A DNA stretch of 39,164 nt, from contig JBAZRS010000001.1 in the NCBI GenBank assembly GCA_041662825.1, positions 1-39,164 of the forward strand, given 5' to 3'. A program made the translations under genes and the position numbers. Shown here in pieces: positions 1 to 28,560 of the stretch (positions within the stretch are counted from its first letter, which is position 1; every line of letters starts with the position of its first letter). This DNA comes from Victivallales bacterium (GTDB taxonomy: Bacteria; Verrucomicrobiota; Lentisphaeria; Victivallales; GWF2-50-93). Below the pieces are notes generated by a model. That model had not been told where the DNA came from. It did no database searches and was given only the letters and a program-made list of their open reading frames with translations.

Positions 1-231
1 GACGGCCAGAAGATGAACACGCAGGAAAAGCAGTTTGCGCAGTCCCTGGCATGGGACAAGGAAAGCCTGGCAAAGCGGCTCGGAGAAGAAAGATACAGAA
101 CGGATCAGATGATCGGCGCGGCAGGGACGGGAGATCGGAACGCAACCTTTTCAAACCTATTGAACTCGGCGGCGACGCTGGGTCAAATAGGTTTGCTTAA
201 AAAATACGGTTATTTCGACAGGAGGGTATGA
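1..231 (+). CDS. virion-associated protein, 5' end probably cut by the window edge; paralog of the N-terminus of the next ORF
   Basis: The frame is open from nt 1 (DGQK precedes the first Met at 13). The motif QEKQFAQSLA..KESLA..LGE.RY.TD recurs in ORF 228-1124. The stop overlaps the next start (ATGA). Confidence 0.5.
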   Translation, partial: DGQKMNTQEKQFAQSLAWDKESLAKRLGEERYRTDQMIGAAGTGDRNATFSNLLNSAATLGQIGLLKKYGYFDRRV

Positions 232-1124
232 TGGCCGTTTTATCTTCCATCCCGTTTTTATCACAGGCTCGCAGGATCAGCCAGCTAAGAGGCGTTCCGT
301 TTCAGAACCGGGACGCGCTGAATATACAGGGCGCATGGTTGCAGAACGCCGGGGATCAGGCCATTGAGGACCGGGCCTTAGCGACGCAGGAAAAGCAGTT
401 TGCGGAAAGCCTTGCATCCTCGAAAGAGAACCTTGCGGCTCAGTTAGGAGAGTCCAGATATCAGACCGACAAGCAGATCGAGGCCGGGAAAGAATCAGCA
501 AGTAAAGGCATGACCTCAAATCTGCTATCCACCGGCGCGAGCCTTGTGGGAACCTATCTGATGTCAAAGGGCCTGCCTTCTCTTGGATTATTGGGGGCCA
601 GCGCAGCTCCGGCAGCATATAGCGCGACACCCGCCATTGTGGGTTCCGGGGCAACGGTAGCAGCGCCGACGGTGGCAGCAACCGGGGCAGAAACCGCGGC
701 GGCAACCGGGGCCGGTGCCGGAATGGGCGTAAGCTCACTATACGCGGGGGTTCCTGCCCTTGCGATTGCGGCAGGCCATACACTTGCGACGATTGCCAAA
801 AAGAACTTTGCGGGCGGGGATGCCATAAATTACGAACCAAACGCCATGAGATATTTTCAAGAGGACTACCGCAGATGGTCCGACATGCGAAGGGCGGAAG
901 GCAAACCAGTGCCGTCCTTTAATGAATTTGCAACAAAGATCGGCGGACCACTCCGGGAAGGCTACAAGGACATAGATACCATCCCGCGCACCATGTATGG
1001 ATCGGCCTATGAACGTGCGGAAGAGGGATTCATGCCCTTCAGCCCGTACAATATCAATGAAAAATTAACACCGGATGAATATGAAAAAAGGTCTTCACTT
1101 CTCAGTGAGATAGGAGGTCTATAA
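228..1124 (+). CDS. Gly/Ala-rich hydrophobic virion or ejection-type protein (298 aa)
   Basis: Long ORF translationally coupled to both neighbours. It has a central A/G/T/V-rich hydrophobic tract (GASAAPAAYSATPAIVGSGATVAAPTVAATGAE...) typical of internal or ejection proteins. Function is inferred from context only. Confidence 0.5.
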   Translation: MMAVLSSIPFLSQARRISQLRGVPFQNRDALNIQGAWLQNAGDQAIEDRALATQEKQFAESLASSKENLAAQLGESRYQTDKQIEAGKESASKGMTSNLLSTGASLVGTYLMSKGLPSLGLLGASAAPAAYSATPAIVGSGATVAAPTVAATGAETAAATGAGAGMGVSSLYAGVPALAIAAGHTLATIAKKNFAGGDAINYEPNAMRYFQEDYRRWSDMRRAEGKPVPSFNEFATKIGGPLREGYKDIDTIPRTMYGSAYERAEEGFMPFSPYNINEKLTPDEYEKRSSLLSEIGGL

Positions 1125-1125
1125 A

Positions 1126-2580
1126 ATGTCAAATCCTTATTCGACAGGGACATGGATGCCGGACTTTTCAAAAACCATTTTGCCTATCGCTGGAATGGTT
1201 ATGAACCGACAATCTCATCTTGACGACATAGATATGCGAAAACAGGCGCTGCAACAGGCGGCAAATCAGTTCAATGTGACCAGCGCAGAGGCGGCAAGGG
1301 GGCATGATCTCACGGCAGAGGGGCAGAACCTTCAAGCCTTTGGAAACCGGACGCCACAGCCGGGGGCAATGTCATTAAAGCAGCAGGAGTTAATGACGAA
1401 AACCGATCCTGACAAGATGATTTTCAATCCCTCTGACATGGTGAAAATCAACGTCGCCACGCAAAAGAAATTTGGAAAGGCCGTTTCCGATGCGCTGAAG
1501 CCTGTGTTTGAATACGGCAACAGCATTGCGGAGAAACCGACATCGACACGGGCCGATGCGCTCGTAAATATGAAAGGCGTTTGGCCGCAGCTACGTGAAG
1601 AGGTCTTGAATAATCTGAAAAAGGTTGATCCGTCAAAACTCAGCATGCAGGAACAGGAACAGTTTTATCAATACATGGATGCGATCACCTACGACAAGAC
1701 CGGGGAGCTGCATCTTGACAAGGGATTTTTCTCAAATACCGCAAAGGCGATTCAAGACCGGGAGGCGAACACACGCGCCGCCCTGCAAGCAAATAAACCT
1801 GATTTTTCTCATAATGTGATTGAGGTCCCGACACCGGACGGAAAAAGCGCACAAAAATTTCAATATAATACAGTAACAAAACAATACGACATTCCCATTG
1901 GGACGGGGCCATATCTTGTTAAAAGTCAGGTCCCCAATGTAAACGTCAAGGTGAACGCCCCCGATAATAATCAGGTTGAAACCCTTGCAAGGGGTATTCT
2001 TGACGGTTCCGTTGATCCGAATGGAATCTCTAAGCGGGGCAATTTGCAAGGCTCTGTCTGGACCAGAGTAAAAGAGATCGACCCGACATTTAATATTGTG
2101 AAGGCTGGCGCTGGCGCTAAGTTTGAATCGGCCAGCCCTACAATGCAGACGAAAGCATTATTGAACGCCATAGACCCGTTGTTGGATAATCTTAAAAAGG
2201 CCGGCGAGAAACTCACGGACACAGGAAGCCCGGCCCTTAATGCTCCGATGCAATGGGCACAGAAGAACATCTTGCCTGACCAATTAGGCGGCGTAGATGT
2301 AACGGCATTTGACAACCTCAGGGATGACACCATTGCAGAGGTTGAACGCGGACTTCTGAATACGGGCGTTCTTTCTGACAGCAAGTATTTACGGGCCGTC
2401 AAAAACCTGAATACAGCGCAAACCCAAAAACAGCGAATGGCAGCGATTGATAATATCAAAATCGTTATCAAGGCACGACTTGAATCGTTGGCATCGGGAC
2501 CGAATGCACCGGCCCAGGGCGGAACACCACAGCGCAGGGCAACCGATAAAACAGACGATCCGCTCGGAATCAGGAGATAA
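1126..2580 (+). CDS. hypothetical virion protein (484 aa)
   Basis: Long ORF starting 2 nt after the previous stop, preceded by GGAGG, within a co-oriented late operon. No motif recognised. Confidence 0.55.
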   Translation: MSNPYSTGTWMPDFSKTILPIAGMVMNRQSHLDDIDMRKQALQQAANQFNVTSAEAARGHDLTAEGQNLQAFGNRTPQPGAMSLKQQELMTKTDPDKMIFNPSDMVKINVATQKKFGKAVSDALKPVFEYGNSIAEKPTSTRADALVNMKGVWPQLREEVLNNLKKVDPSKLSMQEQEQFYQYMDAITYDKTGELHLDKGFFSNTAKAIQDREANTRAALQANKPDFSHNVIEVPTPDGKSAQKFQYNTVTKQYDIPIGTGPYLVKSQVPNVNVKVNAPDNNQVETLARGILDGSVDPNGISKRGNLQGSVWTRVKEIDPTFNIVKAGAGAKFESASPTMQTKALLNAIDPLLDNLKKAGEKLTDTGSPALNAPMQWAQKNILPDQLGGVDVTAFDNLRDDTIAEVERGLLNTGVLSDSKYLRAVKNLNTAQTQKQRMAAIDNIKIVIKARLESLASGPNAPAQGGTPQRRATDKTDDPLGIRR

Positions 2581-2583
2581 ACG

Positions 2584-5184
2584 ATGAATATTTCCGAAAT
2601 CAGACAAAAATATCCACAATATAACGATATGTCTGACCGCCAGATTGCAGAGGGAATGCACAAAGCGCATTACTCGGATATGTCATTTCGGGAATTTTCA
2701 CAGAAGATCGGATTTAATGAACGAGTGGCGCAACCGGCAGCCCCAGAAGAAAAAGGATTTGCCAGCAATGTCAATGAGGCACTTGTTAAACGCGGCGTAA
2801 ATATATCTGACGAACTGACCCCGGCAACCGATGAAGGAATCGGCACAACCCTATTGAAAGCACCTGAAAGGGCGCTCAGAACGACAGGACAGATTGCGGG
2901 ACTTGTCGGCGACGTTGGAGGGGAAGCCATAAAGAGCATTTACAAAACCGTCATGCCGGAAGGCGCACAGGAATCTATAAAGACGAGCGTCAAGGACATC
3001 CTTAAAACTCCGATTGGAGAAATGGGCGTCAATGCAGCGAAATCAGGTTATGAGGCATATCAGGGATTCAAAAAAGAATATCCGAATGTTGCCAAAGACC
3101 TTGAGGCCACCGTGAATATTGCAACCCTATTTCCTATTGGCAAGGCGGCAAAGGGAGCGGCGGCGGCGGGCAAGGAGGCCGTGAATATCGGCCGGGATGT
3201 TATGACGATAGTAAAGGCAAAGACGCCCTCCATGCTTGACAAGGAACTGACCACGGCAATTACAAAGGGGATTGAAAAATCAATCAGACCCACCGTGGTA
3301 GGGAAGCGAACCGCCTCACAAATGAAGAACTATTTTGACAGGGCAAAAACCGCCGTCAAGACCATCATCGAAAATAAAGATAATCTCATGCTATCAGACG
3401 CTGAAGGCGGTATCGTCAAGGGATTGCCGAAAACAATAAAGCAATTTTCCGAGGCCATAGAACAGACAAAACGATCCGTTTTTAAACAATATGACGACAT
3501 GGCAAGGACGGCAGGCGGCAAGGGTGTTGAGGTTGATCTATCCCCCGCAGTACGTGAGCTGGAATCGCTGGGCGGCAATAAAGTCCTGACCGACATGAGC
3601 CCAGAAATAGCCGAATACGCCTTGAAGCGGGCGGAGGCGCTGTCAAGCCGTGGCGTTTATACGACCGCAGAGGCGCAGGACGCCATTACACACCTGAATA
3701 AAAGCCTCGAATCGTTTTATAAAAATCCATCCTATGAAACAGCAAACCGCGCTGGTGTTGACGCCCTCATTGTCAACAACATCCGAAAGTCTCTGGATAA
3801 TGCCATTGAGGGAGCCGCAGGGCAGGGCTATCAGGACTTAAAGCGAACATACGGGGCATTGAAAGCCCTTGAAAAAGACGTCTCACATAGGGCTGTTGTG
3901 GATGCCCGGAAAAACGCAAAGGGACTTCTGGATTTTACCGACGTCCTGACATCCGGTGAACTCCTCGGCGGATTATTGACCATGAATCCCACAATGGCCG
4001 CAACCGGCTTTTTTGGAAGGATGGTCAAGGGATTCTATAAGCGACTGAACGACCCAAACCGTACCGTCAAGGGGATGTTTGCCGATGCTGAGGCTATCAT
4101 AAACCGCAAACCAGTGAGGGCAGCAGACATGCGAAGCGCCACCGGAAGGGCGGTAGGCGCGTTTCTTTCACCAGCAGACGAAACCATCACGGCGGGCACC
4201 GGACGCATGGGGCCGATACCGGCGGGGGCAAACGCAGAGCGTGGATTAGGACCTGTCCGAAGTGGCATAGCTCAGGGCGAACCATACGGACCATCTTCGG
4301 CGCGACTTGTAAGCCCGAAGCAATTACCGGCAGGCCAGGGCTTTGAATTGAGGCAATCAGACATCATCGATGTTCCTTTTACTTCAAGGGAAAGGCCCAC
4401 GCTGAGACTTCCCGATGCCGAACAACGATCAGCGCCGAAACTGTTACCAGCGGGACAGGGATTTGAACTTGTCAAACAGAAAGCAGCAACGGACACGGTA
4501 AAGCAACAGGCAAAGGAAGCCGCAAGCATCGAAACATGGTTGCAGAAAAACAAGGCCATGAAGGGAACGCCCATGTATCGGGAAAACGAGGCGGCGGCGA
4601 AAATAGCAAAACAGAAAATGACCACAGGCGGACCACAGGGTGTAATTGGATACATTAAAGAAATGGGCGGCATGGACCTGTCAAGAGATTATAGGCAAAT
4701 AGGTGAATATCCAGACCTAAAAAGAGTCCACAAAAAAGGCGCAAAAGGCCCGGATGAATGGGCGAATATTCTAAAAGACGAAGGCTTTGTCGGCTTTGAT
4801 TCCGGCGATGATCTTGTTGAAATGATAAAAGAGGGCAAGGCAAGAAATATCTTTACTCCTGAAAAACGGGATGCTAAAATACAATCACAAATAAGGAAAC
4901 TTGAAAATGAAAACATCGCTAATCAGCTCGCCACCCTTGCAGAAAAAGAAGGAATTGACGCCAGAGCAGCAAGAGAAATTCTACCAACTCACCAAAAACG
5001 CCTTATTGACGAGATTACAACAGAAGGGCTTATTGACCCCGCAAACGAAGAAGCCGCATTAAAAGAAATTAGCGACTTTTTCGGATCAGCAGCAAAACCA
5101 TCAAAGAAAAAACCAAAAGTAATAATCAAGGGAAACGCACGCCTTGAGGCACCCGGAAACATATCTATGTCCGGGAAAAGGTAA
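2584..5184 (+). CDS. large virion protein, internal/ejection-type candidate (866 aa)
   Basis: Longest ORF in the window and tightly packed with its neighbours. It has an internal 40-aa-spaced repeat PK(Q/L)LPAGQGFEL and a Lys-rich C-terminus. Confidence 0.55.
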   Translation: MNISEIRQKYPQYNDMSDRQIAEGMHKAHYSDMSFREFSQKIGFNERVAQPAAPEEKGFASNVNEALVKRGVNISDELTPATDEGIGTTLLKAPERALRTTGQIAGLVGDVGGEAIKSIYKTVMPEGAQESIKTSVKDILKTPIGEMGVNAAKSGYEAYQGFKKEYPNVAKDLEATVNIATLFPIGKAAKGAAAAGKEAVNIGRDVMTIVKAKTPSMLDKELTTAITKGIEKSIRPTVVGKRTASQMKNYFDRAKTAVKTIIENKDNLMLSDAEGGIVKGLPKTIKQFSEAIEQTKRSVFKQYDDMARTAGGKGVEVDLSPAVRELESLGGNKVLTDMSPEIAEYALKRAEALSSRGVYTTAEAQDAITHLNKSLESFYKNPSYETANRAGVDALIVNNIRKSLDNAIEGAAGQGYQDLKRTYGALKALEKDVSHRAVVDARKNAKGLLDFTDVLTSGELLGGLLTMNPTMAATGFFGRMVKGFYKRLNDPNRTVKGMFADAEAIINRKPVRAADMRSATGRAVGAFLSPADETITAGTGRMGPIPAGANAERGLGPVRSGIAQGEPYGPSSARLVSPKQLPAGQGFELRQSDIIDVPFTSRERPTLRLPDAEQRSAPKLLPAGQGFELVKQKAATDTVKQQAKEAASIETWLQKNKAMKGTPMYRENEAAAKIAKQKMTTGGPQGVIGYIKEMGGMDLSRDYRQIGEYPDLKRVHKKGAKGPDEWANILKDEGFVGFDSGDDLVEMIKEGKARNIFTPEKRDAKIQSQIRKLENENIANQLATLAEKEGIDARAAREILPTHQKRLIDEITTEGLIDPANEEAALKEISDFFGSAAKPSKKKPKVIIKGNARLEAPGNISMSGKR

Positions 5185-5230
5185 CGGTATAATTATGCAA
5201 ACAAAACAGACATATTCTAAGGAGGGCAAG

Positions 5231-5590
5231 ATGAAAAAGATTTTCTGCATAGCGGCAATCCTGTTGATGCTGGCGGGTTCTGCATGGGGTATCGAATGGA
5301 ACCGGCACAGCGAACAGACGGCAACGGCGGCCATTACAACGGCATCGGGGTATTTCGGCGGCGTCATACTCGCCACGGACGGCACCAACAACGTCACGAT
5401 CAGCGTCTATGACAACGCATCGGCGGCCAGCGGGACTAAATTGCTACCGACGACGGTTGTCACGACATCGGCGGCGAATCGCTCAACGGCGATTGACGTC
5501 AATCCCGCAGTAAGGTTTTACAACGGAATCTATGTTGAAATCACCTGTGCCGGGACGGTAACTTATCACGTGCATTATGTGAACGATTAA
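5231..5590 (+). CDS. small secreted beta-rich protein (signal peptide)
   Basis: AAGGAGG lies 5 nt upstream of the ATG at 5231. The N-terminus MKKIFCIAAILLMLAGSAWG|I has a Sec-type n/h/c architecture. The longer start at 5144 overlaps the preceding gene and was rejected. Confidence 0.6.
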   Translation: MKKIFCIAAILLMLAGSAWGIEWNRHSEQTATAAITTASGYFGGVILATDGTNNVTISVYDNASAASGTKLLPTTVVTTSAANRSTAIDVNPAVRFYNGIYVEITCAGTVTYHVHYVND

Positions 5591-5600
5591 GGGGGATGCC

Positions 5601-6407
5601 ATGAAAAAGCGAATCATTTTAACATCGATCATCCTTGTGATGCTGACGGCGTTTTTCGCCACAGCGGGACCGCGAATCACGCAACAGAACAGCTATGCTC
5701 CGGGATCCGTGGCGATCACCGGCGGGACGATTACCGGCCTAACAAATCTTGTTTCTTCGGGCGGATCGCTTTCCGGGTTCACCTTATTGAGCGGCAACAC
5801 GATCACGGGAACGGGACTCGCGCCCTCGAAGGCTGTTGTAACAAACGCATCGAAAAACCTCGCCTCGTCTGACGACATAACGGCTTTCGTAACTGCGGCA
5901 TCGGCTACCACAGCCGGGAAGGTTGAACTTGCCACAGAAGCTGAGGCCATTTTGACGTCGATGAATACGGTGGCCGTTACCCCTGAAGGGCTTGTCGGCA
6001 AGCTGGCATCTCCGGGCGCCATAGGGGGCACCACGGCGGGAACGCTCAGATATATATTGGATGAAGATGTTGTAACTTCATCTTCGACCCTGACGGTCAA
6101 TCAGGTTAGTGGGGCGCTGATTAACAATTATGGTCAGGCCGACGACACGGTTATCTACCTTCCCACGGCGGCGGCGGGTTATAACTTCACGGCAATTATC
6201 GGTCAGACCGTGGCAAAGTATTTGCGCATCCGGGCAGGCGCGGCGGATAAAATATATCTGGACGGCGCGGCGGGCAACGACTCCGGGTATGTTTATGTGT
6301 CTTATACCACCATCGGTAACGCCCTGTCCTGTGTAGCATTCCAGACAGACGCTTATGATTGGTACTGCGCGACAATATCCGGGGCGTGGGCGGCAGGAGG
6401 TCCGTAA
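5601..6407 (+). CDS. tail-fibre-like protein with N-terminal signal peptide
   Basis: RBS GGGGGA. The N-terminus MKKRIILTSIILVMLTAFFATA|G has an A-x-A cleavage motif. The motif AGKVELATEAEAI....VAVTPEGL resembles the conserved phage tail-fibre motif. Confidence 0.6.
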   Translation: MKKRIILTSIILVMLTAFFATAGPRITQQNSYAPGSVAITGGTITGLTNLVSSGGSLSGFTLLSGNTITGTGLAPSKAVVTNASKNLASSDDITAFVTAASATTAGKVELATEAEAILTSMNTVAVTPEGLVGKLASPGAIGGTTAGTLRYILDEDVVTSSSTLTVNQVSGALINNYGQADDTVIYLPTAAAGYNFTAIIGQTVAKYLRIRAGAADKIYLDGAAGNDSGYVYVSYTTIGNALSCVAFQTDAYDWYCATISGAWAAGGP

Positions 6408-6409
6408 CT

Positions 6410-7240
6410 ATGAGAACACGAATTTCAATAGCGATTGCGGCGTTATTTCTGTTTATATCGACTGAGGCGCTGGCGCTGCCGTTTGCAAGGGTAGGCATAC
6501 GACCCGAGACAGCCACCCAGCGGAATAGAATTATCGCAGACGGGGGCACCATCATTGATCTGAATTTTACAAATACCTTTATTCGCAGAACGAAAGAGCT
6601 TGGTATCTACACCTCCTGCAAGTTTTTAGGCGATGCTAATATGGCCTACAAACAAGGAGCCACAGGGGTTACTACATTCTACGACAAATCGGGGACTGGC
6701 AATGATTTAGTGCAGGGTACGGCGATTAATCAACCCACCTGGACGGCGGGTCAGCAAAACGGAAGGGCCGGGATAGTTTTTGATGGTTCAAGATGGGTAG
6801 CAAAGACCCTTGTTGCTGCCGTGGATATGCCGTTTACGATAATTTCCGTATCGAAAGTAACAACATTTGAGGATTACGGCATTGTATATGCGGCTACTGG
6901 TTCCGCTGGCCCCCAATTATTTTCGTTCGTCGCGCCCTCATTGTCTCTAAGCGATGGCTCCACAGTAGCCACTGGCATCACAACGACTCAATATGATTTA
7001 ATCACCACAGAATGGAACGGGGCTACATCGAAACTGGCTGTTAATGGAGCGGCATACAGCAATGTAAATGTTGGCACCAATCACAGTTCGGCCACTGCAT
7101 TGTCTATTGGAGCATATACAACGCCCGCTTATGGACTAAAAGGAGGCGTGACATCACTGTTTCTTTTTAGCGGCTCCCTTACTACGGCTCAAAAAGTTGC
7201 AATGGAAAATTTGGTAAATTCTTACTACCAAATATATTAG
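6410..7240 (+). CDS. LamG/concanavalin-like domain protein with signal peptide (receptor-binding candidate)
   Basis: AGGAGG RBS before the ATG at 6410. N-terminus MRTRISIAIAALFLFISTEALA|L. The stretch DKSGTGNDLVQGTAINQPTWT..NGRAGIVFDGS is typical of Laminin_G_3-like phage fibre domains. Confidence 0.55.
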   Translation: MRTRISIAIAALFLFISTEALALPFARVGIRPETATQRNRIIADGGTIIDLNFTNTFIRRTKELGIYTSCKFLGDANMAYKQGATGVTTFYDKSGTGNDLVQGTAINQPTWTAGQQNGRAGIVFDGSRWVAKTLVAAVDMPFTIISVSKVTTFEDYGIVYAATGSAGPQLFSFVAPSLSLSDGSTVATGITTTQYDLITTEWNGATSKLAVNGAAYSNVNVGTNHSSATALSIGAYTTPAYGLKGGVTSLFLFSGSLTTAQKVAMENLVNSYYQIY

Positions 7241-7247
7241 GAGTATT

Positions 7248-7910
7248 ATGAGGTTACAGGATTTAACAGGTAAACGTTATGGGAGGTTGACCGTAAAAAG
7301 TCGTGATACGAATTGCGGCAAGCATGTCAAATGGGTTTGTCTTTGTGATTGCGGAAATGAAAAAACAATTTTTGCCATGAACCTAAAACGGGGCCTTACA
7401 ACTTCGTGTGGTTGCTTTCGTAAAGAGAATATCCACAACCCCCTTAAACATGGTCTTACCGGTACCCGTATTTACAATATTTATCATGGCATGATTGCCC
7501 GATGTTGCTCAATTCAAGAAAATAATGAGGCATATCCCTATTATCGTGGAAAGGGGATTGAGGTTTGTAACGAATGGCGTTCAGACATTAAAAACTTTTA
7601 TTCATGGGCTATGGCGAATGGCTATGATGAATCTTTGACGATTGACCGGATAGATAATGACGGAAATTATGAGCCATCTAATTGTCGGTGGATACCCATT
7701 GGCGAACAGTCAAAGAATACATCTTCTAATCACAATATCACATTTCAAGATGAAACCATGACTATGAGTGATTGGGCAAGAAAGAAAGGATTAAAAATTA
7801 GTACGTTTTGTGCGCGGTTAAAAAAGGGATGGAGCAAGGAAGAAGCTCTGACAATACCCTTACTAAATCATTCTCAAAGTGGATTGGGTAGGTACTACGC
7901 GATATATTGA
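7248..7910 (+). CDS. HNH_3/AP2-like homing-endonuclease-type protein
   Basis: N-terminus RYGRLTV....W.C.CDCGNE....L..G...SCGC. Also YRGKGIEVCNEW...F..WA..NGY and SLTIDRIDNDGNYEPSNCRW. It is visibly more AT-rich than the flanking genes. Confidence 0.6.
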   Translation: MRLQDLTGKRYGRLTVKSRDTNCGKHVKWVCLCDCGNEKTIFAMNLKRGLTTSCGCFRKENIHNPLKHGLTGTRIYNIYHGMIARCCSIQENNEAYPYYRGKGIEVCNEWRSDIKNFYSWAMANGYDESLTIDRIDNDGNYEPSNCRWIPIGEQSKNTSSNHNITFQDETMTMSDWARKKGLKISTFCARLKKGWSKEEALTIPLLNHSQSGLGRYYAIY

Positions 7911-7943
7911 TTTCCGCCAATTAAATAGTGAAGGAGAACGCGA

Positions 7944-8213
7944 ATGGCAAACGGCGACAGCTTCAAAGACTTTAACAACTTCAAGCGGGTACTGATGGGC
8001 GTGGTTGTCCTCATCGTCGTGGGTTGGTTAGGCTGGGTTTCCCTGTGTGCTGTTGCCGCCGATAGGGAGGTGGCGGTGCTTAAATCAACCATCACGTACA
8101 TCAAGCAAGACGTTCAGGAATTAAAAACGGACACGAAATCAGTTTTCGGGCTTGTAACGGCGATAAGAGACGACCAAATCCGCCGGGAGCGAAGAGAGAA
8201 CAGGCGCAGATGA
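7944..8213 (+). CDS. N-terminally anchored membrane protein with coiled coil (holin or i-spanin candidate)
   Basis: AAGGAG RBS. One TM segment (VLMGVVVLIVVGWLGWVSLCAV), then a helical region with an Arg-rich tail. It lies directly upstream of the endolysin. Confidence 0.5.
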   Translation: MANGDSFKDFNNFKRVLMGVVVLIVVGWLGWVSLCAVAADREVAVLKSTITYIKQDVQELKTDTKSVFGLVTAIRDDQIRRERRENRRR

Positions 8214-8320
8214 AAACAATCAATCACATTTTCGCTTTTATCTTTTTGGGAATCGGGATGGCCTTTGCTTACGCAGCCATGGGGTTTACCTATATCGGCC
8301 AATGCTTCACGGAGGAATAA
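8210..8320 (+). CDS. 36-aa hydrophobic peptide (lysis-cassette membrane protein candidate)
   Basis: Not in the ORF track because it is under 60 aa. Its ATG overlaps the previous stop (ATGA) and its stop abuts the endolysin ATG at 8321. Sequence: MKTINHIFAFIFLGIGMAFAYAAMGFTYIGQCFTEE. Confidence 0.4.
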   Translation: MKTINHIFAFIFLGIGMAFAYAAMGFTYIGQCFTEE

Positions 8321-8803
8321 ATGCCGAGCAGGAAAATGAAAACATCCGATCTGAAAAAATTGCTCTATTCTACCTTCGGGGATCTTCGCGACGATCAATT
8401 ATTGGGCCTTGTGGACTATGGAGAATCCAGGGGGGAGCCGCGAGAAGGCCAGATAGCCGTCGGCACCGTTATTCTTGAGCGCGTCGATCACCGGGATTGG
8501 GACGGCAAAACGATCAAGGAGGTCTGCCTTTTGCCTTATCAGTTTTCATGCCTGCTGCCCGACGATCCGAATTTCAAACAGCTAGCCCTGATCGCTTCGG
8601 GCTTCGAGGCGGCTCTGATGAAATCATCGGTTTTGACGGGATGCCATGAAATTGCAAAGGGCCTGCTTGACGGCACGATTCCGAGGAATCCACTTTTGGC
8701 AGAACATCACTGCATGCAATACAAAGTGGTAGGCTGCAAGGCTGCATGGGCAGATAAGATGCGACTGATTTTAATAATCGGTCACCACGAGTTTTATGTG
8801 TGA
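8321..8803 (+). CDS. endolysin, SleB-like cell-wall hydrolase (Hydrolase_2 type)
   Basis: The motif GESRGEPREGQIAVGTVILERV....WDGKTIKEVCLLPYQFSC matches the SleB/Hydrolase_2 signature (GE.RGE...G..AV..VI.NR...P.QFS). Confidence 0.8.
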   Translation: MPSRKMKTSDLKKLLYSTFGDLRDDQLLGLVDYGESRGEPREGQIAVGTVILERVDHRDWDGKTIKEVCLLPYQFSCLLPDDPNFKQLALIASGFEAALMKSSVLTGCHEIAKGLLDGTIPRNPLLAEHHCMQYKVVGCKAAWADKMRLILIIGHHEFYV

Positions 8804-8824
8804 TCCGATAGAAAGGAGGGCACT

Positions 8825-9001
8825 ATGTTAAACTGGAAAACAACCCTATTCGGGTTTTTGGCTGCGTTGCCGCAGCTCATCAATTTTATCACTCCGGCAA
8901 TTCCTGAGCCGTGGGGCGGATTGGCCTCAAGCATTGCGATCATTATCGCGTTCTATTTCGCAAAAGACAAGGAAGTGAAAAGCGCAACGGTTGGGCAGTA
9001 A
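8825..9001 (+). CDS. 58-aa two-TM membrane protein, holin candidate
   Basis: Strong RBS AAGGAGGG. Sequence MLNWKTTLFGFLAALPQLINFITPAIPEPWGGLASSIAIIIAFYFAKDKEVKSATVGQ has two hydrophobic segments and a charged C-tail. It is under 60 aa and so absent from the ORF track. Confidence 0.55.
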   Translation: MLNWKTTLFGFLAALPQLINFITPAIPEPWGGLASSIAIIIAFYFAKDKEVKSATVGQ

Positions 9002-10115: not shown

Positions 10116-10220
10116 TCAGCGCAGGATTCCGATTTTAATATCTTCTGCGAATATCCAGAAAAATACAACAACCAGCGCGAAAAGAAAGAAGAAAATAGCA
10201 ATGGAATGATACTCTTTCAT
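10116..10220 (-). CDS. 34-aa hydrophobic peptide, convergent with the preceding ORFs
   Basis: Minus-strand sequence MKEYHSIAIFFFLFALVVVFFWIFAEDIKIGILR, with GAGGGG upstream of the ATG. It is very short, so speculative. Confidence 0.3.
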   Translation of the reverse strand: MKEYHSIAIFFFLFALVVVFFWIFAEDIKIGILR

Positions 10221-10314
10221 CGGCAAATACCCCTCACGATCTCCCCTTGCCCACCCACTGCAAGTTAAACGGAATAGAACATCTTGAAATCTTAGCGGAA
10301 TTGCCCGAAGCTCA

Positions 10315-10355
10315 TGATTACGAATCAGTTGCTCTACCGGCTGAGCTACATCGGC
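10315..10355 (-). other. 5' fragment (positions 1-41) of a tRNA-Thr(CGU)-like sequence; putative attP core
   Basis: The minus strand reads GCCGATG TA GCTC AGCCGGTA GAGC A ACTGA TTCGTAA TCA. This gives an acceptor 5' strand, a complete D arm, the anticodon stem 5' strand and a loop with CGT at positions 34-36. Downstream there is no matching anticodon-stem 3' strand, T arm or CATCGGC acceptor strand. Confidence 0.7.
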
Positions 10356-11428
10356 TTGTTAATAATTCCGCCACCTTGAACCACTTTGATTTTTGGTTTT
10401 TGCTCACTACGGTCACTACGGCTAACCAAATTTAATCCATTTACCGCCCTTCGCATGGTGTTCATCGAGACCGCCGCGTAAATCTGCGTTGTCGAAATAG
10501 ATTTATGCCCCAGAAGTTTCTGAATGATCCTGATATCCGCCCCGGATTCAAGTAAATGTGTTGCAAAACTGTGTCTTATCATGTGGGGAGTGATCCTTTT
10601 GTCTATTCCGGCCCGGGACATGGCTGTCAATAAGGGTTTCCTCACATCCGTCAGCGGCTTCCCTGTCTTTCTTGACGGGAACAGCCATTTACCATCCTGA
10701 TTGATTCCGGTCAAGATTCTTTTCAAATCCTTTACTATGGGCACAAGTCTTTCCTTTGAACCCTTCCCCTTCACTTTCAGGCAGGATTGATCCTGGGCCA
10801 AATCTGACGGCCTGAGGTGAGTAACTTCATCCCTCCTGAGGCCGCAATAATACATTGTGGCATAGAGCGCCCTTGAAACGCCGGTCATATTATTTAAGAT
10901 AATTGCAATCTCGTCTCGAGACAGCACCGAGGGGAGGGCTTTCCGATACGGCAACGGCTCCCATTTCTCAGGCGGGGAGCAAAAACTCTGCTTCGCGCCC
11001 CATTTTATCATGTGTGTGAGGCACAGGATTTCAAGGTTTACGGCCCGGCTGCATGTCGGCCTTTCGGTCGTGTCCATCCTTTTCTTTTTATACGCGGTTA
11101 TCAGGCTGTTTGAAATCGCATCCGGCTGCATGTTGCCAAAAAACAAGAGAAGATGATTATTCAGCATCATCTTTTTATTTTTCAGGGTCGTCGGACTCTG
11201 CTGCATTTCTACCCATAATAAATAGTCCGTGGCGATTTCATCACAGGTTTTTGACTGAGACTGGACAGGCTTGCGGTAGGTTTTCCGAAGGCTGCGCTCT
11301 TGAGCAAGCGCCTCCTGCCGGGAACCGCAATAGGTGATCTGGTGCCGTCCGCTTTTCCGGCCGGTTTCATAGAAATCAATAATATGCTTTTTCGCATTTA
11401 CAGAACGGACAGACATTAAACACCACAA
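10346..11428 (-). CDS. int: tyrosine recombinase / phage integrase
   Basis: The C-terminal catalytic region has ...GLRRDEV..L..., HMIRHSFATHLLESGADIRIIQKLLGHKSISTTQIYAAV (the R..HxxR..Y pattern) and an N-terminal SAM-like domain. The start may be 11416 rather than 11428. The TAG stop lies inside the tRNA fragment. Confidence 0.95.
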   Translation of the reverse strand: MWCLMSVRSVNAKKHIIDFYETGRKSGRHQITYCGSRQEALAQERSLRKTYRKPVQSQSKTCDEIATDYLLWVEMQQSPTTLKNKKMMLNNHLLLFFGNMQPDAISNSLITAYKKKRMDTTERPTCSRAVNLEILCLTHMIKWGAKQSFCSPPEKWEPLPYRKALPSVLSRDEIAIILNNMTGVSRALYATMYYCGLRRDEVTHLRPSDLAQDQSCLKVKGKGSKERLVPIVKDLKRILTGINQDGKWLFPSRKTGKPLTDVRKPLLTAMSRAGIDKRITPHMIRHSFATHLLESGADIRIIQKLLGHKSISTTQIYAAVSMNTMRRAVNGLNLVSRSDRSEQKPKIKVVQGGGIINKPM

Positions 11429-12761: not shown

Positions 12762-13001
12762 ATGACAAAACGTGAACTTGATTTTCTGGAAAAATGCTTT
12801 GCACGCCAGCTTGAAGGATACCTTTTTCAATCAAAAAGCAAACTGGCAGACAAACTCGAAGCGGAAGGATTTATTTGCAAGGAATCAAAATATTTTGGCC
12901 GGGATCGTTTCGGCGCAATCGTTTGCCATGGCTACGCCCTGACCTACAAAGGAAATTTTGCATATTGCAATAGTGAAAGATGCCATGAACCCCTACCTTA
13001 A
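12762..13001 (+). CDS. hypothetical early protein (79 aa)
   Basis: ORF in the co-oriented early operon, starting 3 nt after the previous stop. No motif recognised. Confidence 0.5.
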   Translation: MTKRELDFLEKCFARQLEGYLFQSKSKLADKLEAEGFICKESKYFGRDRFGAIVCHGYALTYKGNFAYCNSERCHEPLP

Positions 13002-13383
13002 ATCATCCCTGCGCTGGCTGTCTCTCGCCGCAATCGTGACGGTGCTGTGGCTACTTTACGGGTGCGCCTCAGTGGTAGCGCCCCGCCCATATCATGTCAC
13101 GGCGAAAGTTACGACAGAGGTTCATATTGTAACCGACAGGGCGGGCTTTTCAATTCCTGAATACAGGGATTCCAATCCAAGAAATCAGAGTCGCAACATT
13201 GCCGGTTACGCCGACATGAGGGAAGGCGTCTGTCATATCTATGTTTTGGGGTACGAATACAAGGGGCGCATTTATCCGATGACAGCGGAAATCTTAGGCC
13301 ATGAATTTCAGCACTGCCTGAATATGGTCAACCCCGCCGTGCTTGATCCAGACACAGATTACAAATGGTGGATGGGAAGGTAA
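12985..13383 (+). CDS. small lipoprotein with HExxH zincin motif
   Basis: Sequence MNPYLKSSLRWLSLAAIVTVLWLLYG|C has a lipobox-like LYGC. ILGHEFQHCLN lies near the C-terminus. The internal Met at 12985 was chosen because the signal sequence begins there. Confidence 0.5.
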   Translation: MNPYLKSSLRWLSLAAIVTVLWLLYGCASVVAPRPYHVTAKVTTEVHIVTDRAGFSIPEYRDSNPRNQSRNIAGYADMREGVCHIYVLGYEYKGRIYPMTAEILGHEFQHCLNMVNPAVLDPDTDYKWWMGR

Positions 13384-20952: not shown

Positions 20953-21587
20953 GTGAGCCAAAACATCTCACAATAAAAGAAGTCAACATTCTATATGATG
21001 AAATAGTGCAGGTGAGGGCTGCCCTTGCGGAGAAGGAACGGGAGCTGAAAGAACTTGCCGAGGCAAGGGATTATCTCAAGCGGGAATTAAGCGATTCTAA
21101 TAAGCGCATCGCCGCCCTGACCGCAGAGAACAAGGAATTAAAGGAAGAAATTGCCTATCAAGACGTGATGTTGAATCCCGGCGAATATATCCGCGAGCAG
21201 AAACGGGATGGATTTGTGATTTGCGTTCTAAGGGAAGACTTGTGGGATATTAGGAGTAAAAAAGATGCCGAGAAGGAAAAGCAACGCATCTCAACCCTGC
21301 AAGGCCAGATTGAAAACTGGAAAGATTCGGCGGCGCAGTTTCTTCGCAATCAGAAATACTATGCGGGGCTGTTGGATGAGGTTGCAAAGCATTTGGGCAA
21401 TGATGTTTTTATATCTGACGATGGTAGTGTTCAGGATGAACCGCTGCGGGCAAAGATTCCCGAATTAGTTGCAGCCCTCAAAGCCGAAATAAAAGTGCTT
21501 AACCACGAGCAATTTGAAATGTCCCAGGTGATCCATGAATTCACAAAACAGCAAGCCGAACACACGGAGGATCGAGGAAATGATTAA
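20949..21587 (+). CDS. coiled-coil protein (212 aa)
   Basis: Heptad-like E/K/L-rich sequence (VRAALAEKERELKELAEARDYLKRELSDSNKRIAALTAENKELKEEI) and an ATGA overlap. Confidence 0.55.
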   Translation: MSEPKHLTIKEVNILYDEIVQVRAALAEKERELKELAEARDYLKRELSDSNKRIAALTAENKELKEEIAYQDVMLNPGEYIREQKRDGFVICVLREDLWDIRSKKDAEKEKQRISTLQGQIENWKDSAAQFLRNQKYYAGLLDEVAKHLGNDVFISDDGSVQDEPLRAKIPELVAALKAEIKVLNHEQFEMSQVIHEFTKQQAEHTEDRGND

Positions 21588-21855
21588 CCCCGAATTTATC
21601 AACTTTATGCAAGAGCTTGTCATGGCGCCGGATTCAGTAATCAAGAAGGCGCACATGGAGAGGATGTTTCTGATTATCCGCCGCCTCCAAGCCGAGGCCA
21701 ATATTAACATGGCCGAAATCTGTAAGCTGCGGGGCCAGGTGGAGAAGCTGAAAAGGATAATGACCAGCCATGCCGCTGTATGTAGGGGATGGTTCGGCGA
21801 GAACGAAGAATGGGAAAGTGAGGTATTCCCGAAGGAGGATCAGTGTGTTGATTAA
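21580..21855 (+). CDS. hypothetical protein (91 aa)
   Basis: Internal Met at 21580, with GGAGGA upstream. Confidence 0.5.
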   Translation: MINPEFINFMQELVMAPDSVIKKAHMERMFLIIRRLQAEANINMAEICKLRGQVEKLKRIMTSHAAVCRGWFGENEEWESEVFPKEDQCVD

Positions 21856-22162
21856 GATATTGGGGCACAATGTCGAGCTGATTTATGATGACAAATGGTC
21901 TCACAAGCGTAATACAGTTGGAACGTATTGCGCGAATGAACTTACTATAACTATTGATCCGACATATCCGGTTACAAGGCAGGAGGAAGGATTGCTCCAT
22001 GAAATATTTGAGGCAATACTATTTCATGTAAATTGTTCTGAAACCTTATCTCATGCCCTCATGTCCACAATAAGTGAAATGCTGTATCAAATCATTAAAG
22101 ACAATCCGGATATATTTACAATGAAAATGCCGAGGCTGGACGCAATCGTCAAGGGGAAATAG
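21845..22162 (+). CDS. hypothetical protein with degenerate HExxH-like segment (LLHEIFEAI)
   Basis: GTG start 7 nt after AAGGAGG. The pattern I.G..V.......G.....ELTITID.......Q....LLHEIFEAILF resembles small phage metallopeptidase-like proteins, but the second His is Glu. Confidence 0.45.
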   Translation: MLIKILGHNVELIYDDKWSHKRNTVGTYCANELTITIDPTYPVTRQEEGLLHEIFEAILFHVNCSETLSHALMSTISEMLYQIIKDNPDIFTMKMPRLDAIVKGK

Positions 22163-22171
22163 GGGGAGAAG

Positions 22172-22918
22172 ATGGCAGAAGGTAGGATGTTGTCAAAACG
22201 CGTGACGCGATCCGGTAAGGTTTCTGCTTTGTCGTCGGACACGGCCCGGATGATTTATTCCTGGCTCATCCCATATACGGATGTTGAGGGGAGGATGGAG
22301 GCCGATCCGAGGCTCTTAAAAGCTGACATTGCCCCCCTTTTGGATCACATTACACCGGCAGTTATCAACAGCGTGCTTCAGGAGCTTCATAAAATAGGCT
22401 TGGTTATCCTTTATTCAACACCCGACGACACAAAACAATATCTACAAATTACTAAGTTTGAGGACAATCAGAAGAATTTACGCAAGGATAGAGAAGCCCC
22501 GTCACGAATACCAAAACCGACGGCGGCGCAACTCCGGCAGAAGTCCGGCGCAACTCCGGCAGAAGTCCCCCCTAATATAAGAGAAGATAAGTTAAGTTTA
22601 AGAGAAGATAATAAAGGGCCTGCCGAAGAGCCTTTTAATTTACCATCAAAAGAAGAAATCCAGGAATCATCGGATCCAAAAATAGAAGAACACATCCAGC
22701 AGGTATGTGACAGGCTCTATAAGGAGAAGATATTCCCGGAAGTCCATGCTTTCAAAAACAAGATGTTAAAAGGCAACAAGAACGGGCGCGGTGTGTTGCA
22801 TGTTTTGACGCGGTGTTACATGGCAAAGCCGGAAGATCCCTGGGGATATTGCCAGAAGATAATCTCAATCGAGGATGGGAACTATAATGAAAGAGATTAC
22901 AGAAAAACTGCACAGTAA
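22172..22918 (+). CDS. replisome-organizer / replication-initiator-like protein
   Basis: The N-terminal GRMLSKRVTRSGKVSALSSDTARMIYSWLIPYTDVEGRMEADPRLLKADIAP resembles the Phage_rep_org_N pattern (RRMFSK....S..F..L....Q.LY..L....DD.G....P..I...I). The central low-complexity linker contains DNA repeats. Confidence 0.45.
   Translation: MAEGRMLSKRVTRSGKVSALSSDTARMIYSWLIPYTDVEGRMEADPRLLKADIAPLLDHITPAVINSVLQELHKIGLVILYSTPDDTKQYLQITKFEDNQKNLRKDREAPSRIPKPTAAQLRQKSGATPAEVPPNIREDKLSLREDNKGPAEEPFNLPSKEEIQESSDPKIEEHIQQVCDRLYKEKIFPEVHAFKNKMLKGNKNGRGVLHVLTRCYMAKPEDPWGYCQKIISIEDGNYNERDYRKTAQ
22525..22568. repeat. perfect 22-bp tandem direct repeat (2 copies)
   Basis: GGCGCAACTCCGGCAGAAGTCC occupies 22525-22546 and again 22547-22568. 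The copies are read in two different frames (AQLRQKS and GATPAEV). Confidence 0.95.
22578..22611. repeat. two 13-nt direct repeats in an AT-rich stretch
   Basis: TAAGAGAAGATAA occurs at 22578-22590 and 22599-22611, a 21-nt periodicity, immediately after the 22-bp repeats. Confidence 0.9.
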
Positions 22919-26535: not shown

Positions 26536-28523
26536 CCATCGAAATTGACAAAATCTCAACGTCCGGAGCCGTCCCTGAGGTGATTGAGGTCTATCGGCTT
26601 TTAAAGCGGTACAAGGAAGACCCGGCTCGCGTGGATTGGGAACGCGACGTCTATAAGCGCGGATGGGATGTGGCCTTCGGCAAACAAGACGCCATGTGGA
26701 CCGAAGACGAAAAACAGGCCATGACCGACAAGAAACAGATTCCCATTGCGATCAATGATTGCGCGAAGGGCATCCAGGGATCATGCGCCATTGCGACGGC
26801 GAACAAGCCCGGCATACAGGTTAAGCCGATTGGGTCGTCGGACCTCTACGTGTCAGAGCTTATCAAGCGCGCCTTTGACTTTGGATGGGGCCAGAACGAC
26901 GGAAATGCGGTTATCTTTGAGGGCGTGCTGGAATCAAAGGTTGGCTCCTGCGGCTGGTTCGATGTGTATTGGGATGAATCAAAAATAACGAAGTGGTCAA
27001 CCGGGAAGATCGTTATCAAATCAGACGATCCCCTAGAATACTATTTTGACAAAAAGTCGAAGCGGCCCGACAAGCGGGATTCACACATCATCAAGGCCCA
27101 CCTGATAACTCGCAATTACGCCAAAGACAATTACGACGTCACCGATGATGACCTGGATTTCAAACCGGTTTCGCAGGATGAGGAACCCGGCAAGTCTTCC
27201 GCAGGCTCCCCTGGTGAAGACGAATATGCACGCATGGAGTCCGAGAAAGCCGCGAAGGACACCCGCTCAGATGAACCCGGCGAGGATGAAAAGGCCGACG
27301 TATGGGAAATCGAAGCATGGTTGATTAAGAAAATCAAGACGTTCTGCCTGTATTCCATCGACGACCGCACCGGGGAGCTGAATAAGTTTGAATTTAAGAC
27401 CAGAAAAGAAGCCGAAAACGCGCTGTTGAAGCTGCACGAAATCAAGCAGGGCATGGCGATTGCACAGTCGCAACAGGACGGCATTGAACCGCAAGTTTTT
27501 ACCATTGAGGACGTCGGCAAGATCAAAGAGATTCGCCTTGAAAAGCGGGTGCAGCGGATCATCGTAGGTAAAAAGCTGATTTCAGAGGAAGCAAACCCCT
27601 ACGGGACCGATTCAGACGGCGACCCCGTTGTGCCTAAAATCCCCATCCCGCACGACCGCAGCGCAAGCGGGTTTTTCGTCGGGCCTACCTATCGGGCCAT
27701 TGAGATCACGCGAAGCCGCAACAAGGGCAGGATGCAGGCAAAATATATCCTGACGCAAAACCTGACAGCGCCGATTGTCAGAACGGAAGGTTCAAAATGG
27801 CTGCGGGACAAGGTTCATGGCGACGAGCTTGTCGTTGATAAAGGCGTGCCCTTCCGTCCGTTCCGGCTATTGCCTGGCGCTACCACAGGGGAACTCATGG
27901 CGATGGACCAGCGCGACGAGATCGCAATCAACGATGAATACGATATGTCAGACGTTATGAAGGGCAAGCTGCCCCCCGGTGCGGATTCCGGCAAAGTGGT
28001 TATCGCATTGCAGGATCAGGCGGGCATGATGTCAACGCCGTTCATCGGCCAGAGGGTAGAGGGCTGTATTGTCAAAATAGCAAAAGTCATGCTGGCAATC
28101 ATGCTGAAGCATTGGACGCGGCAGATGTGGGAGCGCCTCATCGAACCCGACGAAAGAACGACATGGCAGCCCGACAAGGAAAAGAAAATCAATCAAGACA
28201 CCGGCGAACCCGAAGCCCCGCCGCCCGACGAAATCTCTCTGAAATGGGAGCAGGCCCTTGAATTGATCCGGCCGGCAGATCCCACGAAGCCGCCGGGGAT
28301 CGAATTGGATGAACTGGATATCAAGATCACGGCAGGCTCCACCATGCCGACAAACCGCATGGCGAAGTCCATGATGGCGATTGAAAAGGTCAATGCAGGC
28401 ATTTACGATGCAGAGGCCGCGCTGGATTACGACGACGACCCGAACAAGGAAAGGATTATTGCCCGGATGCGGCAGAAGGAACAGGCCATGATGCAGGCCG
28501 GAATGATGAAGGGGGCGAAATGA
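26532..28523 (+). CDS. portal protein candidate (663 aa)
   Basis: Its size and its position after terL and before the scaffold and capsid genes. It has an acidic surface insertion (DEEPGKSSAGSPGEDEYARMESEKAAKDTRSDEPGEDEKAD). The family was not verified. Confidence 0.65.
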   Translation: MTIEIDKISTSGAVPEVIEVYRLLKRYKEDPARVDWERDVYKRGWDVAFGKQDAMWTEDEKQAMTDKKQIPIAINDCAKGIQGSCAIATANKPGIQVKPIGSSDLYVSELIKRAFDFGWGQNDGNAVIFEGVLESKVGSCGWFDVYWDESKITKWSTGKIVIKSDDPLEYYFDKKSKRPDKRDSHIIKAHLITRNYAKDNYDVTDDDLDFKPVSQDEEPGKSSAGSPGEDEYARMESEKAAKDTRSDEPGEDEKADVWEIEAWLIKKIKTFCLYSIDDRTGELNKFEFKTRKEAENALLKLHEIKQGMAIAQSQQDGIEPQVFTIEDVGKIKEIRLEKRVQRIIVGKKLISEEANPYGTDSDGDPVVPKIPIPHDRSASGFFVGPTYRAIEITRSRNKGRMQAKYILTQNLTAPIVRTEGSKWLRDKVHGDELVVDKGVPFRPFRLLPGATTGELMAMDQRDEIAINDEYDMSDVMKGKLPPGADSGKVVIALQDQAGMMSTPFIGQRVEGCIVKIAKVMLAIMLKHWTRQMWERLIEPDERTTWQPDKEKKINQDTGEPEAPPPDEISLKWEQALELIRPADPTKPPGIELDELDIKITAGSTMPTNRMAKSMMAIEKVNAGIYDAEAALDYDDDPNKERIIARMRQKEQAMMQAGMMKGAK

Positions 28524-28560
28524 GAACCGCACTACTCGAAACGCTTGGGAGGGCGTGAAA

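Follow-up and report, generated by a model that had tools for sequence, protein, structure and literature searches.

Three consecutive late genes of an uncultured short-tailed phage, which we call A, B and C, make up a predicted tail-fibre module in which every protein starts with a Sec-type signal peptide. This suggests an export-dependent route for the outer tail that has not been described for tailed phages. The genes lie at positions 5231 to 7240 of a stretch of 39,164 nucleotides assigned to a Victivallales bacterium (assembly GCA_041662825.1, contig JBAZRS010000001.1, forward strand), which was analysed in full and is referred to here as the window. Scaffold C1, of which the window is the first 39,164 bases, is 42,608 bases long and belongs to a bin of 755 contigs and 5.45 Mb. 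Signals on A-C, on all other outer-tail genes of the same phage (D, E and F, described below) and in more than 100 relatives suggest that the outer tail matures outside the cytoplasm. The assembly of tailed phages is taken as wholly cytoplasmic, and the first-pass annotation of the window had called export signals on fibre-like proteins unexpected. That assessment holds as far as the literature could be searched: full-text searches on signal peptides of phage tail and virion proteins returned no description for tail fibres or nozzles.

N-termini were scored with a heuristic rule of our own, which asks for a basic n-region, a hydrophobic core without Asp or Glu, and small residues at positions -1 and -3. 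The rule flagged A, B and C, the genes starting at 28836 and 35961, at which the first-pass annotation had already reported a recurrence of the feature, and a lipobox-containing open reading frame (ORF) at 12985. None of 30 annotated T7 proteins was flagged. In the bin 13% of the ORFs were flagged, and the 6 of 44 ORFs found in the phage correspond to the same rate. The number of flagged phage genes is thus unremarkable, and what counts is the identity of these genes.

The sequence of A, B and C is as the first-pass annotation had described it: each N-terminus combines a basic n-region with a hydrophobic core and a small-x-small site, and each start follows a strong ribosome-binding site (RBS). 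Gene A (119 residues; 5231-5590, plus strand), the first of the fibre block, starts with the ATG at 5231 behind AAGGAGG. Its N-terminus, MKKIFCIAAILLMLAGSAWG followed by IEW past the predicted cut, consists of MKK, the core IFCIAAILLMLAG and the site AWG before Ile, so that the signal would cover residues 1-20 (nucleotides 5231-5290). Gene B (268 residues; 5601-6407, plus strand) starts with the ATG at 5601 behind AGGGGGA and reads MKKRIILTSIILVMLTAFFATA and then GPR, with MKKR, the core IILTSIILVMLTAFF and ATA before Gly (predicted signal 1-22, nucleotides 5601-5666). Gene C (276 residues; 6410-7240, plus strand) has its ATG at 6410 behind AGGAGG and reads MRTRISIAIAALFLFISTEALA and then LPF, with MRTR, the core ISIAIAALFLFI and STEALA before Leu (predicted signal 1-22, nucleotides 6410-6475). 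The hydrophobic cores of the three are 12-15 residues long. The signal of C is the least canonical, since it has a Glu in the c-region and passes only a looser form of the rule. With Ile, Gly and Leu at +1 there is no lipobox on A, B or C, and the signals are not of type II; the Pfam model LPAM_1 matched A with an E-value of 0.03, below the cut-off. On the evidence as a whole, including the conservation, the cysteine pair and the concordance of neighbours described below, the signals are very probably real export signals.

The three genes follow one another closely within the late operon: 10 bases separate A from B, and 2 bases separate B from C. The possibility that A-C are independent morons was considered and rejected in view of this tight spacing and the lack of any excess of promoters or terminators, in a scan that assumed sigma-70-type sites.

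The AlphaFold2 (AF2) model of A has a predicted local distance difference test score (pLDDT) of 94 and shows a single N-terminal helix and then seven modelled strands that form a beta sandwich. We read this domain of about 99 residues as a jelly roll, and in the interpretation that we favour A would be a small accessory protein. An exhaustive search for the family yielded 514 representatives, 173 of them with E-values below 1e-10, and signals were scored on the best 150. Between 115 and 123 of these (about 80%) carry a signal of the same form and of unrelated sequence, and about 25 begin directly at the mature domain (about 20% without a signal). Fold matches in BFVD are signal-less proteins of 90-100 residues from uncultured tailed phages, a few of which are labelled virion protein. 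In the PDB only weak jelly-roll matches came up for A, namely nucleoplasmin cores, the BPP-1 cement protein and a metagenomic pentameric capsid protein (E-value about 0.01), and nothing was built on them. No member of the A family was found in reference genomes, and the wider A alignment is too divergent to seed a scan.

Two arrangements of A-family genes in other phages are of separate interest. In G001 (IMGVR_UViG_3300017613_001403), a relative of the window phage, positions 21283-22211 after the portal gene encode two signal-less A paralogs of 103 and 104 residues. These alternate with two related basic helical proteins (202 and 101 residues), in a layout that resembles a duplicated two-gene unit. 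In an unrelated large phage, on a 135-kb contig (L010 8001-14134; IMGVR_UViG_3300037067_005321), a signal-bearing A homolog is followed by four signal-bearing ORFs of 762, 190, 512 and 134 residues. Then come a signal-less ORF of 112 residues and a 155-residue ORF with a signal-like start. From this layout, the arrangement of A first and then an array of exported proteins extends beyond the lineage of the window phage.

B has a Gly/Thr-rich shaft and a C-terminal domain at about residues 150-268. The fibre motif that the first-pass annotation had seen in its shaft, AGKVELATEAEA...VAVTPEGL, is borne out by a match of residues 80-163 to phrog_910, a tail collar fibre protein family (E-value 2.2e-6); searches of Pfam and NCBIfam gave no match. 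The C-terminal domain of about 120 residues is common to 29 homologs, the N-terminal parts of which are mosaic. It is modelled with a pLDDT above 90, and Foldseek matched it to the capsid spike of Pa223 (9ny6_C, E-value 2e-6), a KP1 baseplate protein (9f4a_LS, E-value 3e-4) and the N-terminal docking part of CBA120 TSP4 (7rej_A, E-value 8e-4). The template-modelling scores of these matches are low because confident modelling is limited to the C-terminal 120 residues of B. On the basis of the model, B appears to be a fibre that ends in a domain similar to the docking domains of spikes and tailspikes, a fold of virion type. No close relatives of B or C were found in viral contigs.

The B family occurs both with and without the signal, which is lacking in 19 of its 30 members, and the presence of the signal goes together with a pair of cysteines. 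In the AF2 model the last beta hairpin of B, formed by strands 241-248 and 252-260, places Cys244 opposite Cys256, since its register pairs residue 244 with 256. Both cysteines are present in 8 of the 11 signal-bearing members and in none of the 19 signal-less ones (Fisher test, 3e-5). On a maximum-likelihood tree of the B domain, signal status changed at least three times, and seven times by parsimony, and the cysteine pair appears on about five separate signal-bearing branches. Counted by lineage, the pair is found in 5 of 7 signal-bearing and 0 of 12 signal-less cases (p 0.002). A disulfide that is present only together with a signal is what export to an oxidising compartment predicts.

One of the signal-bearing B homologs belongs to another type of phage. 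It is encoded on contig L001 (1-9115) just after a polyvalent protein of 5658 residues with SNF2, ART-PolyVal and LPD38 domains.

The signal status of B homologs is also shared by their neighbours. On the contigs of nine B-family genes the flanking genes were scored, and a signal was found in 7 of 8 flanks of signal-bearing B homologs as against 0 of 10 flanks of signal-less ones (p 2.5e-4). A long-tailed phage with a tape-measure gene (contig L111) encodes a signal-less A member (E-value 1e-32) upstream of a signal-less B homolog, with a 51-residue ORF in between. The A-B pair is thus found in both states, and its two genes change state together. In G001 the two signal-less A paralogs stand among signal-less genes, and a third, signal-bearing A stands ahead of three signal-bearing proteins. 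The neighbours of a signal-less C homolog are likewise all signal-less. Since proteins that work together need to be in the same compartment, this concordance is hard to explain if the N-terminal segments are inert.

C matches phrog_10356, a family of virion structural proteins, with an E-value of 6e-12. The LamG-like character that the first-pass annotation had given to C was upheld in part: PF13385 (Laminin_G_3) is found as a weak precomputed match on the C homologs P0032 and P0034, and Pfam gives no match on C itself at E-values below 0.1. C is read here as a putative LamG-type, lectin-like protein. Five full-length homologs with 35-41% identity were found, and all five lack the first 20 or so residues, so the signal of C is an add-on to the body of the protein. 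In a phage with a signal-less C homolog, the third gene downstream (L006 11790-13790) encodes a genuine PF04932 protein.

A and E were used to fetch relatives, and three whole records (G001, G002 and G003, 40-45 kb) were compared with the window phage. The late genes of the window phage run from portal through D, scaffold, capsid, two small proteins, E, a polytopic membrane protein and an adaptor-like protein to F. These are followed by four signal-less proteins (about 117, 298, 484 and 866 residues), A, B, C, an HNH endonuclease and the lysis genes. The order parallels that of T7 genes 11-17, which puts A-C at the position of the podophage fibre gene. In none of the four genomes is there a signal on the terminase, portal, scaffold, capsid, two post-capsid proteins, adaptor or internal proteins, whereas D, E, F and the fibre slot carry signals. 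Which genes fill the slots downstream of the portal and of the internal proteins differs from phage to phage; most of them are signal-bearing, and an A homolog usually comes first. The fibre slot of G003 contains A only, and that of G001 contains A and three other signal-bearing proteins.

One protein in the fibre slot of G001 (L011 9956-11923) deserves separate mention. It is signal-bearing, has 655 residues and shows, by eye, repeats like those of a right-handed beta-helix of the depolymerase type. No family match was found for it.

Gene F extends the trait to a large core protein. The first-pass annotation had suspected a further recurrence at 39103, near the end of the window, and this proved to be the N-terminal signal of F. 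The segment 39103-39164 (plus strand) encodes the signal peptide, MKKAFVAIALILSIVGIAIG..., and F continues on C1 to 42331. A run of 10 N at C1 39165-39174, directly past the last base of the window, lies inside the gene; up to this gap the frame is open and reads ...SPYPFPFVGRW. In G001, G002, G003 and contig L093 the signal is followed at once by the motif P[YF]xFPFxG[RK]W, and this uninterrupted reading identifies the ORF at 39103 as the N-terminus of F. F is a LamG protein of 1042 residues (Laminin_G_3, E-value 2e-15). Its start overlaps the stop of the adaptor gene in the window phage (ATGA), G001 and G002, and lies 3 bases from it in G003. In all four genomes the order is adaptor, F and then four signal-less proteins, to be compared with T7 genes 11-16.

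A search with the G003 copy of F returned at least 163 homologs, and the best 120 clusters were scored. About 117 of the 120 carry a signal, and the remaining few are truncated gene calls. The homologs are 870-1500 residues long. At the first site past the core that fits small residues at -1 and -3, scored in 105 of these sequences, Ala was the commonest residue at -1 (47 sequences), and this first fitting site lies mostly 11-16 residues ahead of the conserved motif. Two F homologs are labelled by source as coming from Omnitrophica and Dissulfurispiraceae bins, and no protein-level relative of F was found among deposited phages. Across homologs, N-terminal signals thus recur on related A, E and F proteins, and the homologs of C go without them.

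The other two signal-bearing genes lie on either side of the capsid region. Gene E (308 residues; 35961-36887, plus strand) stands between the head-completion genes and the adaptor, a position that is conserved in the lineage. It has homologs in the same place in G001, G002, G003 and L093, and the signal is present in all five proteins. Gene D (636 residues; 28836-30746, plus strand) is fibre-like and occupies the slot after the portal gene; searches of Pfam, PHROG and NCBIfam gave no family match. The same slot in G002 holds an A homolog and a 282-residue protein, both with signals. D is flanked by two ORFs with a single hydrophobic segment each, at 28555-28839 and 30743-31060; the start codon of D overlaps the stop of the first, and the stop of D overlaps the start of the second.

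The split between signal-less and signal-bearing proteins falls at the adaptor: those on the head side lack signals and those beyond it carry them. The simplest account of this split is that the distal proteins are exported and meet the heads at lysis. In such a scheme A, B and C would form the tail-fibre module, and every protein distal to the head-tail adaptor would be made as a Sec preprotein. The N-terminal segments would serve as type I signals, and the proteins would cross the inner membrane unfolded. Signal peptidase I would then cut, and folding would take place in the periplasm, including formation of a disulfide in B. The heads, portal, adaptor and internal proteins would remain in the cytoplasm, and the exported proteins D, E and F and the A-B-C block would be attached to DNA-filled heads once the holin opens the inner membrane. 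A cytoplasmic-type endolysin together with ordinary holin lysis, to which the small membrane proteins of the lysis cassette point, would allow the two compartments to mix. Translocation and cleavage, the role of F as a nozzle, and the joining of the virion at lysis are steps that we infer. Taken as a whole, this chain, in which a Sec-exported distal tail module joins the heads at lysis, is possible and is put forward tentatively. That virions are assembled in two compartments in this phage and in more than 100 uncultured relatives, which would be a categorically new route, is a doubtful proposition at present.

Next to E lies the polytopic membrane protein (about 418 residues from the ATG at 36955; 36955-38211, plus strand), which adjoins E in every relative (for instance L093 6576-7706 and L094 10828-11889). 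It contains the motifs GT(L/I)GNxN(F/Y)LA and LH(S/N)E(Y/W)...(Y/F)G(L/I)IGLS, in which we presume a likeness to the H-x-E/N...G-L-I-G pattern of O-antigen ligase (Wzy_C). Alignment to a PF04932-bearing phage protein with hhalign gave a probability of 28%, on the motif GT(L/I)GNxN(F/Y)LA. No match to the protein was found in Pfam, NCBIfam, the PDB or PHROG, and comparison of three homologs with PF04932 and the NCBIfam ligase model gave none at E-values up to 10. The protein might modify the exported tail proteins in the periplasm, an extension of the export scheme that we consider very unlikely.

Several observations weigh against assembly from an exported tail. The signal rule is lenient, as it wrongly flagged Bcep22 gp65 and gp66. 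The concordance of neighbours was scored at nine loci and has an exception in L001, where one signal-less gene flanks a signal-bearing B homolog. Three signal-bearing B homologs lack the cysteine pair, and in the A family cysteine content and signal status are unrelated. F may be nozzle-like, and its virion role is deduced from its position, its size and its status as a core gene. Comparison of F profiles of 3 and 31 sequences with T7 gp12, a known nozzle, gave hhalign probabilities below 1%; profile searches of the PDB returned nothing relevant and PHROGs matched the LamG insert only. Sequence methods are weak for the nozzle fold. In known podophages the portal is closed by the tail, so that loss of DNA would be expected from heads without a nozzle. 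We know of no tailed phage that assembles in two compartments. Finally, an attP-like stretch beside the integrase (window 10200-10460) agrees with a tRNA-Thr(CGT) gene of the bin (C34 6156-6231) at just 31 of 35 bases, so the bin, to which the phage is linked by binning alone, may not be the true host.

The first-pass annotation had offered three explanations for the signals without choosing among them: proteins that are exported but are not virion parts, uncleaved membrane tethers, or an unusual assembly route. Of these the last is best supported. Proteins of the first kind would target the cell envelope during infection or lysogeny. They could mask or destroy the receptor of the phage, to exclude superinfection or to keep progeny from binding debris in the manner of T5 Llp and Cor, or they could remodel the surface together with the polytopic protein. 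Exported phage proteins beside receptor-binding genes are a classical pattern, known from Llp, Cor and Lom, and it suits this reading that the signals look functional, that the phage is temperate and has an integrase, that the content of the fibre slot differs among relatives, and that a late-region membrane protein with motif-level resemblance to O-antigen ligase is conserved. Signal-bearing phage genes have also been taken as envelope modifiers in Porphyromonas phages (Matrishin et al., 2023; PMC10367356). However, A-C have neither a lipobox nor a separate promoter, and they sit closely spaced within the late operon. The docking fold of B is of virion type, and signal-less A-B pairs occur in an ordinary tail module. 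The reading also fits poorly with F: E and F carry the same signals yet are core genes at fixed positions, and F is conserved in more than 100 phages. If all fibre-like proteins were decoys, no recognisable receptor-binding protein would be left, and when A-F and the genes next to B homologs were compared by BLAST, neither B nor C showed the kind of likeness to F that a decoy would have. An exported, non-virion role is thus unlikely, although it has more in its favour than the explanations that follow. 

If the hydrophobic N-termini were instead transient tethers on the cytoplasmic face of the inner membrane, elements for assembly or oligomerisation, or segments removed by a phage protease, assembly could take place entirely in the cytoplasm. 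This is the conservative explanation, since all known tailed phages assemble there, and the segment is a plain helix in the AF2 models of A and B. Matrishin et al. (2023) ascribe the predicted signals of capsid proteins to cleavage by prohead protease; in the window phage, however, no prohead protease gene was recognised. The combination of a basic N-terminus, a core and a small-x-small site gives an export topology, with the N-terminus in and the C-terminus out. Its form is conserved, including the -3 and -1 sites, while the sequence drifts, homologs do without the segment, and the cysteine pair is confined to signal-bearing B lineages. Bcep22 gp70, a known virion protein annotated 'contains potential signal peptide' in a podophage whose capsid is distantly related, was considered as a precedent and rejected: it has no basic n-region, and blastp of the phage proteins against 18 Bcep22 late proteins (E-value 0.01) gave no match. 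The uncleaved tether is accordingly disfavoured, and we regard this group of explanations as improbable. It is more improbable still that the proteins are free agents, released as soluble lectins, fibres or enzymes with targets on neighbouring cells or in the matrix and working apart from the particle, in which case the compartment of synthesis would be of little consequence. The repeated gain and loss of the signal in the B family would fit a function that is indifferent to the route, F and, putatively, C have lectin-type domains, and the beta-helix, depolymerase-like protein identified by eye (L011_9956) sits in the same slot of a relative. The strict concordance of neighbours, the docking fold of B and the signals on about 117 of 120 F clusters would all be left unexplained. 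The equal flag rates of phage and bin would be expected if the signals had arisen by chance or from gene calling, but this is effectively refuted by conservation over hundreds of homologs, together with the RBS-fixed starts, the restriction to one functional class of genes and the absence of flagged proteins in T7.

Scaffold C1 is a temperate short-tailed phage (podophage) of about 42.6 kb from an uncultured lineage. Its ends share a repeat of about 120 bases with three mismatches, which indicates a circular or terminally redundant genome, and an ORF at 42341 crosses the scaffold junction into window positions 1-231. Phage markers are an integrase (10346-11428, minus strand), which marks the phage as temperate, the large terminase (24333), the portal (26532), a major capsid protein of HK97 type (33318) and a Hydrolase_2 endolysin identified by a family match (8321). 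This capsid protein shares about 30% identity with those of podophages of the Bcep22, PEp14 and Stx types. A blastn search of a deposited-phage collection with window positions 5000-9000 matched the HNH gene only and no A-C sequence. The adaptor-like protein (302 residues; 38198-39106, plus strand) has no signal peptide and matched PF24175 (SU10_adaptor) with an E-value of 0.007, below the cut-off; its homologs in three relatives are 40-43% identical.

Ahead of the A-C block, positions 228-5184 (plus strand) encode the three signal-less proteins of 298, 484 and 866 residues, which by position and size are internal or ejection proteins of the virion; they have no signal in any of the four phages. 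Downstream of the block lies a lysis cassette (7944-9001, plus strand) with small membrane proteins and the endolysin, which is signal-less. The HNH endonuclease between C and the lysis genes (7248-7910) belongs to phrog_374 (E-value 3e-66). A homolog with 39% identity in G003 is located elsewhere, at 27219-27668 between signal-bearing genes and the adaptor, and the gene thus behaves as a mobile gene would. In the early region, the lipobox ORF (12985-13383, LLYG before the Cys) has the sole lipoprotein-type signal of the phage. The bin itself is diderm, with Omp85 and signal peptidase I present, and its RpoB is at best 63-65% identical to other sequences, those of Verrucomicrobiota.

Compared with known systems, the A-C block is placed like a T7 gp17 module, after internal virion proteins and before the lysis genes. 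Like podovirus fibre and tailspike modules, B has a fibre shaft motif, the N-terminal parts of its homologs are mosaic, and its C-terminal domain matches by fold domains of the Pa223 spike, the KP1 baseplate protein and CBA120 TSP4, which has an anchor with gp10-like XD domains. Unlike in podovirus fibre modules, A-C and the other distal proteins start with signals of the cleavable type, of which the rule flagged none among 30 T7 proteins, and unlike in the N-terminal anchor of podovirus spikes, the conserved domain of B is C-terminal. T5 Llp, phi80 and N15 Cor, and lambda Lom and Bor are signal-bearing proteins whose genes lie in or beside the tail-fibre region and whose site of action is the envelope. 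These are small lipoproteins or outer-membrane barrels and are not built like fibres. In contrast to Llp and Cor, A-C have no lipobox, B and C would retain 246-254 residues after cleavage, and the fibre, putative LamG and jelly-roll bodies are shared with signal-less phage proteins. The trait also covers the core protein F with its 870-1500 residues, which sets it apart from Llp, Cor, Lom and Bor alike.

Proteins like phage fibres are reportedly secreted by a diderm in the case of the MAT fibres of Bdellovibrio, which are trimeric, mosaic adhesins. Those are chromosomal genes of a predatory bacterium, whereas A-C are late genes of a phage. In Porphyromonas phages, predicted Sec signals have been read as use of host secretion (Matrishin et al., 2023; PMC10367356). 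The genes named there are capsid genes, with cleavage by prohead protease, spanins, and genes of unknown function that were read as envelope modifiers; tail parts and a lineage-wide tagging of tails are absent from that paper. The coat proteins g3p and g8p of the filamentous phage Ff are virion proteins that have Sec or YidC signals and are assembled at the envelope (PMC4823517). Ff belongs to another virus realm and leaves the cell by extrusion, without lysis, whereas the window phage has an HK97-type capsid, a portal, a terminase and a holin-endolysin cassette.

On a modest reading, the analysis provides two markers of compartment that can be read from sequence alone and looked for in other phages. 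One is the co-occurrence of a cysteine pair with the signal, the other the concordant switching of neighbours. If the export-dependent route is true, the assembly of these phages would gain a step that depends on lysis and takes place in a separate compartment. Their fibres could hold disulfides and perhaps periplasmic modifications. Tail genes in viromes would be miscalled as secreted host-interaction factors, and vice versa, and the secretion and oxidative-folding genes of the host would be dependency factors of the phage.

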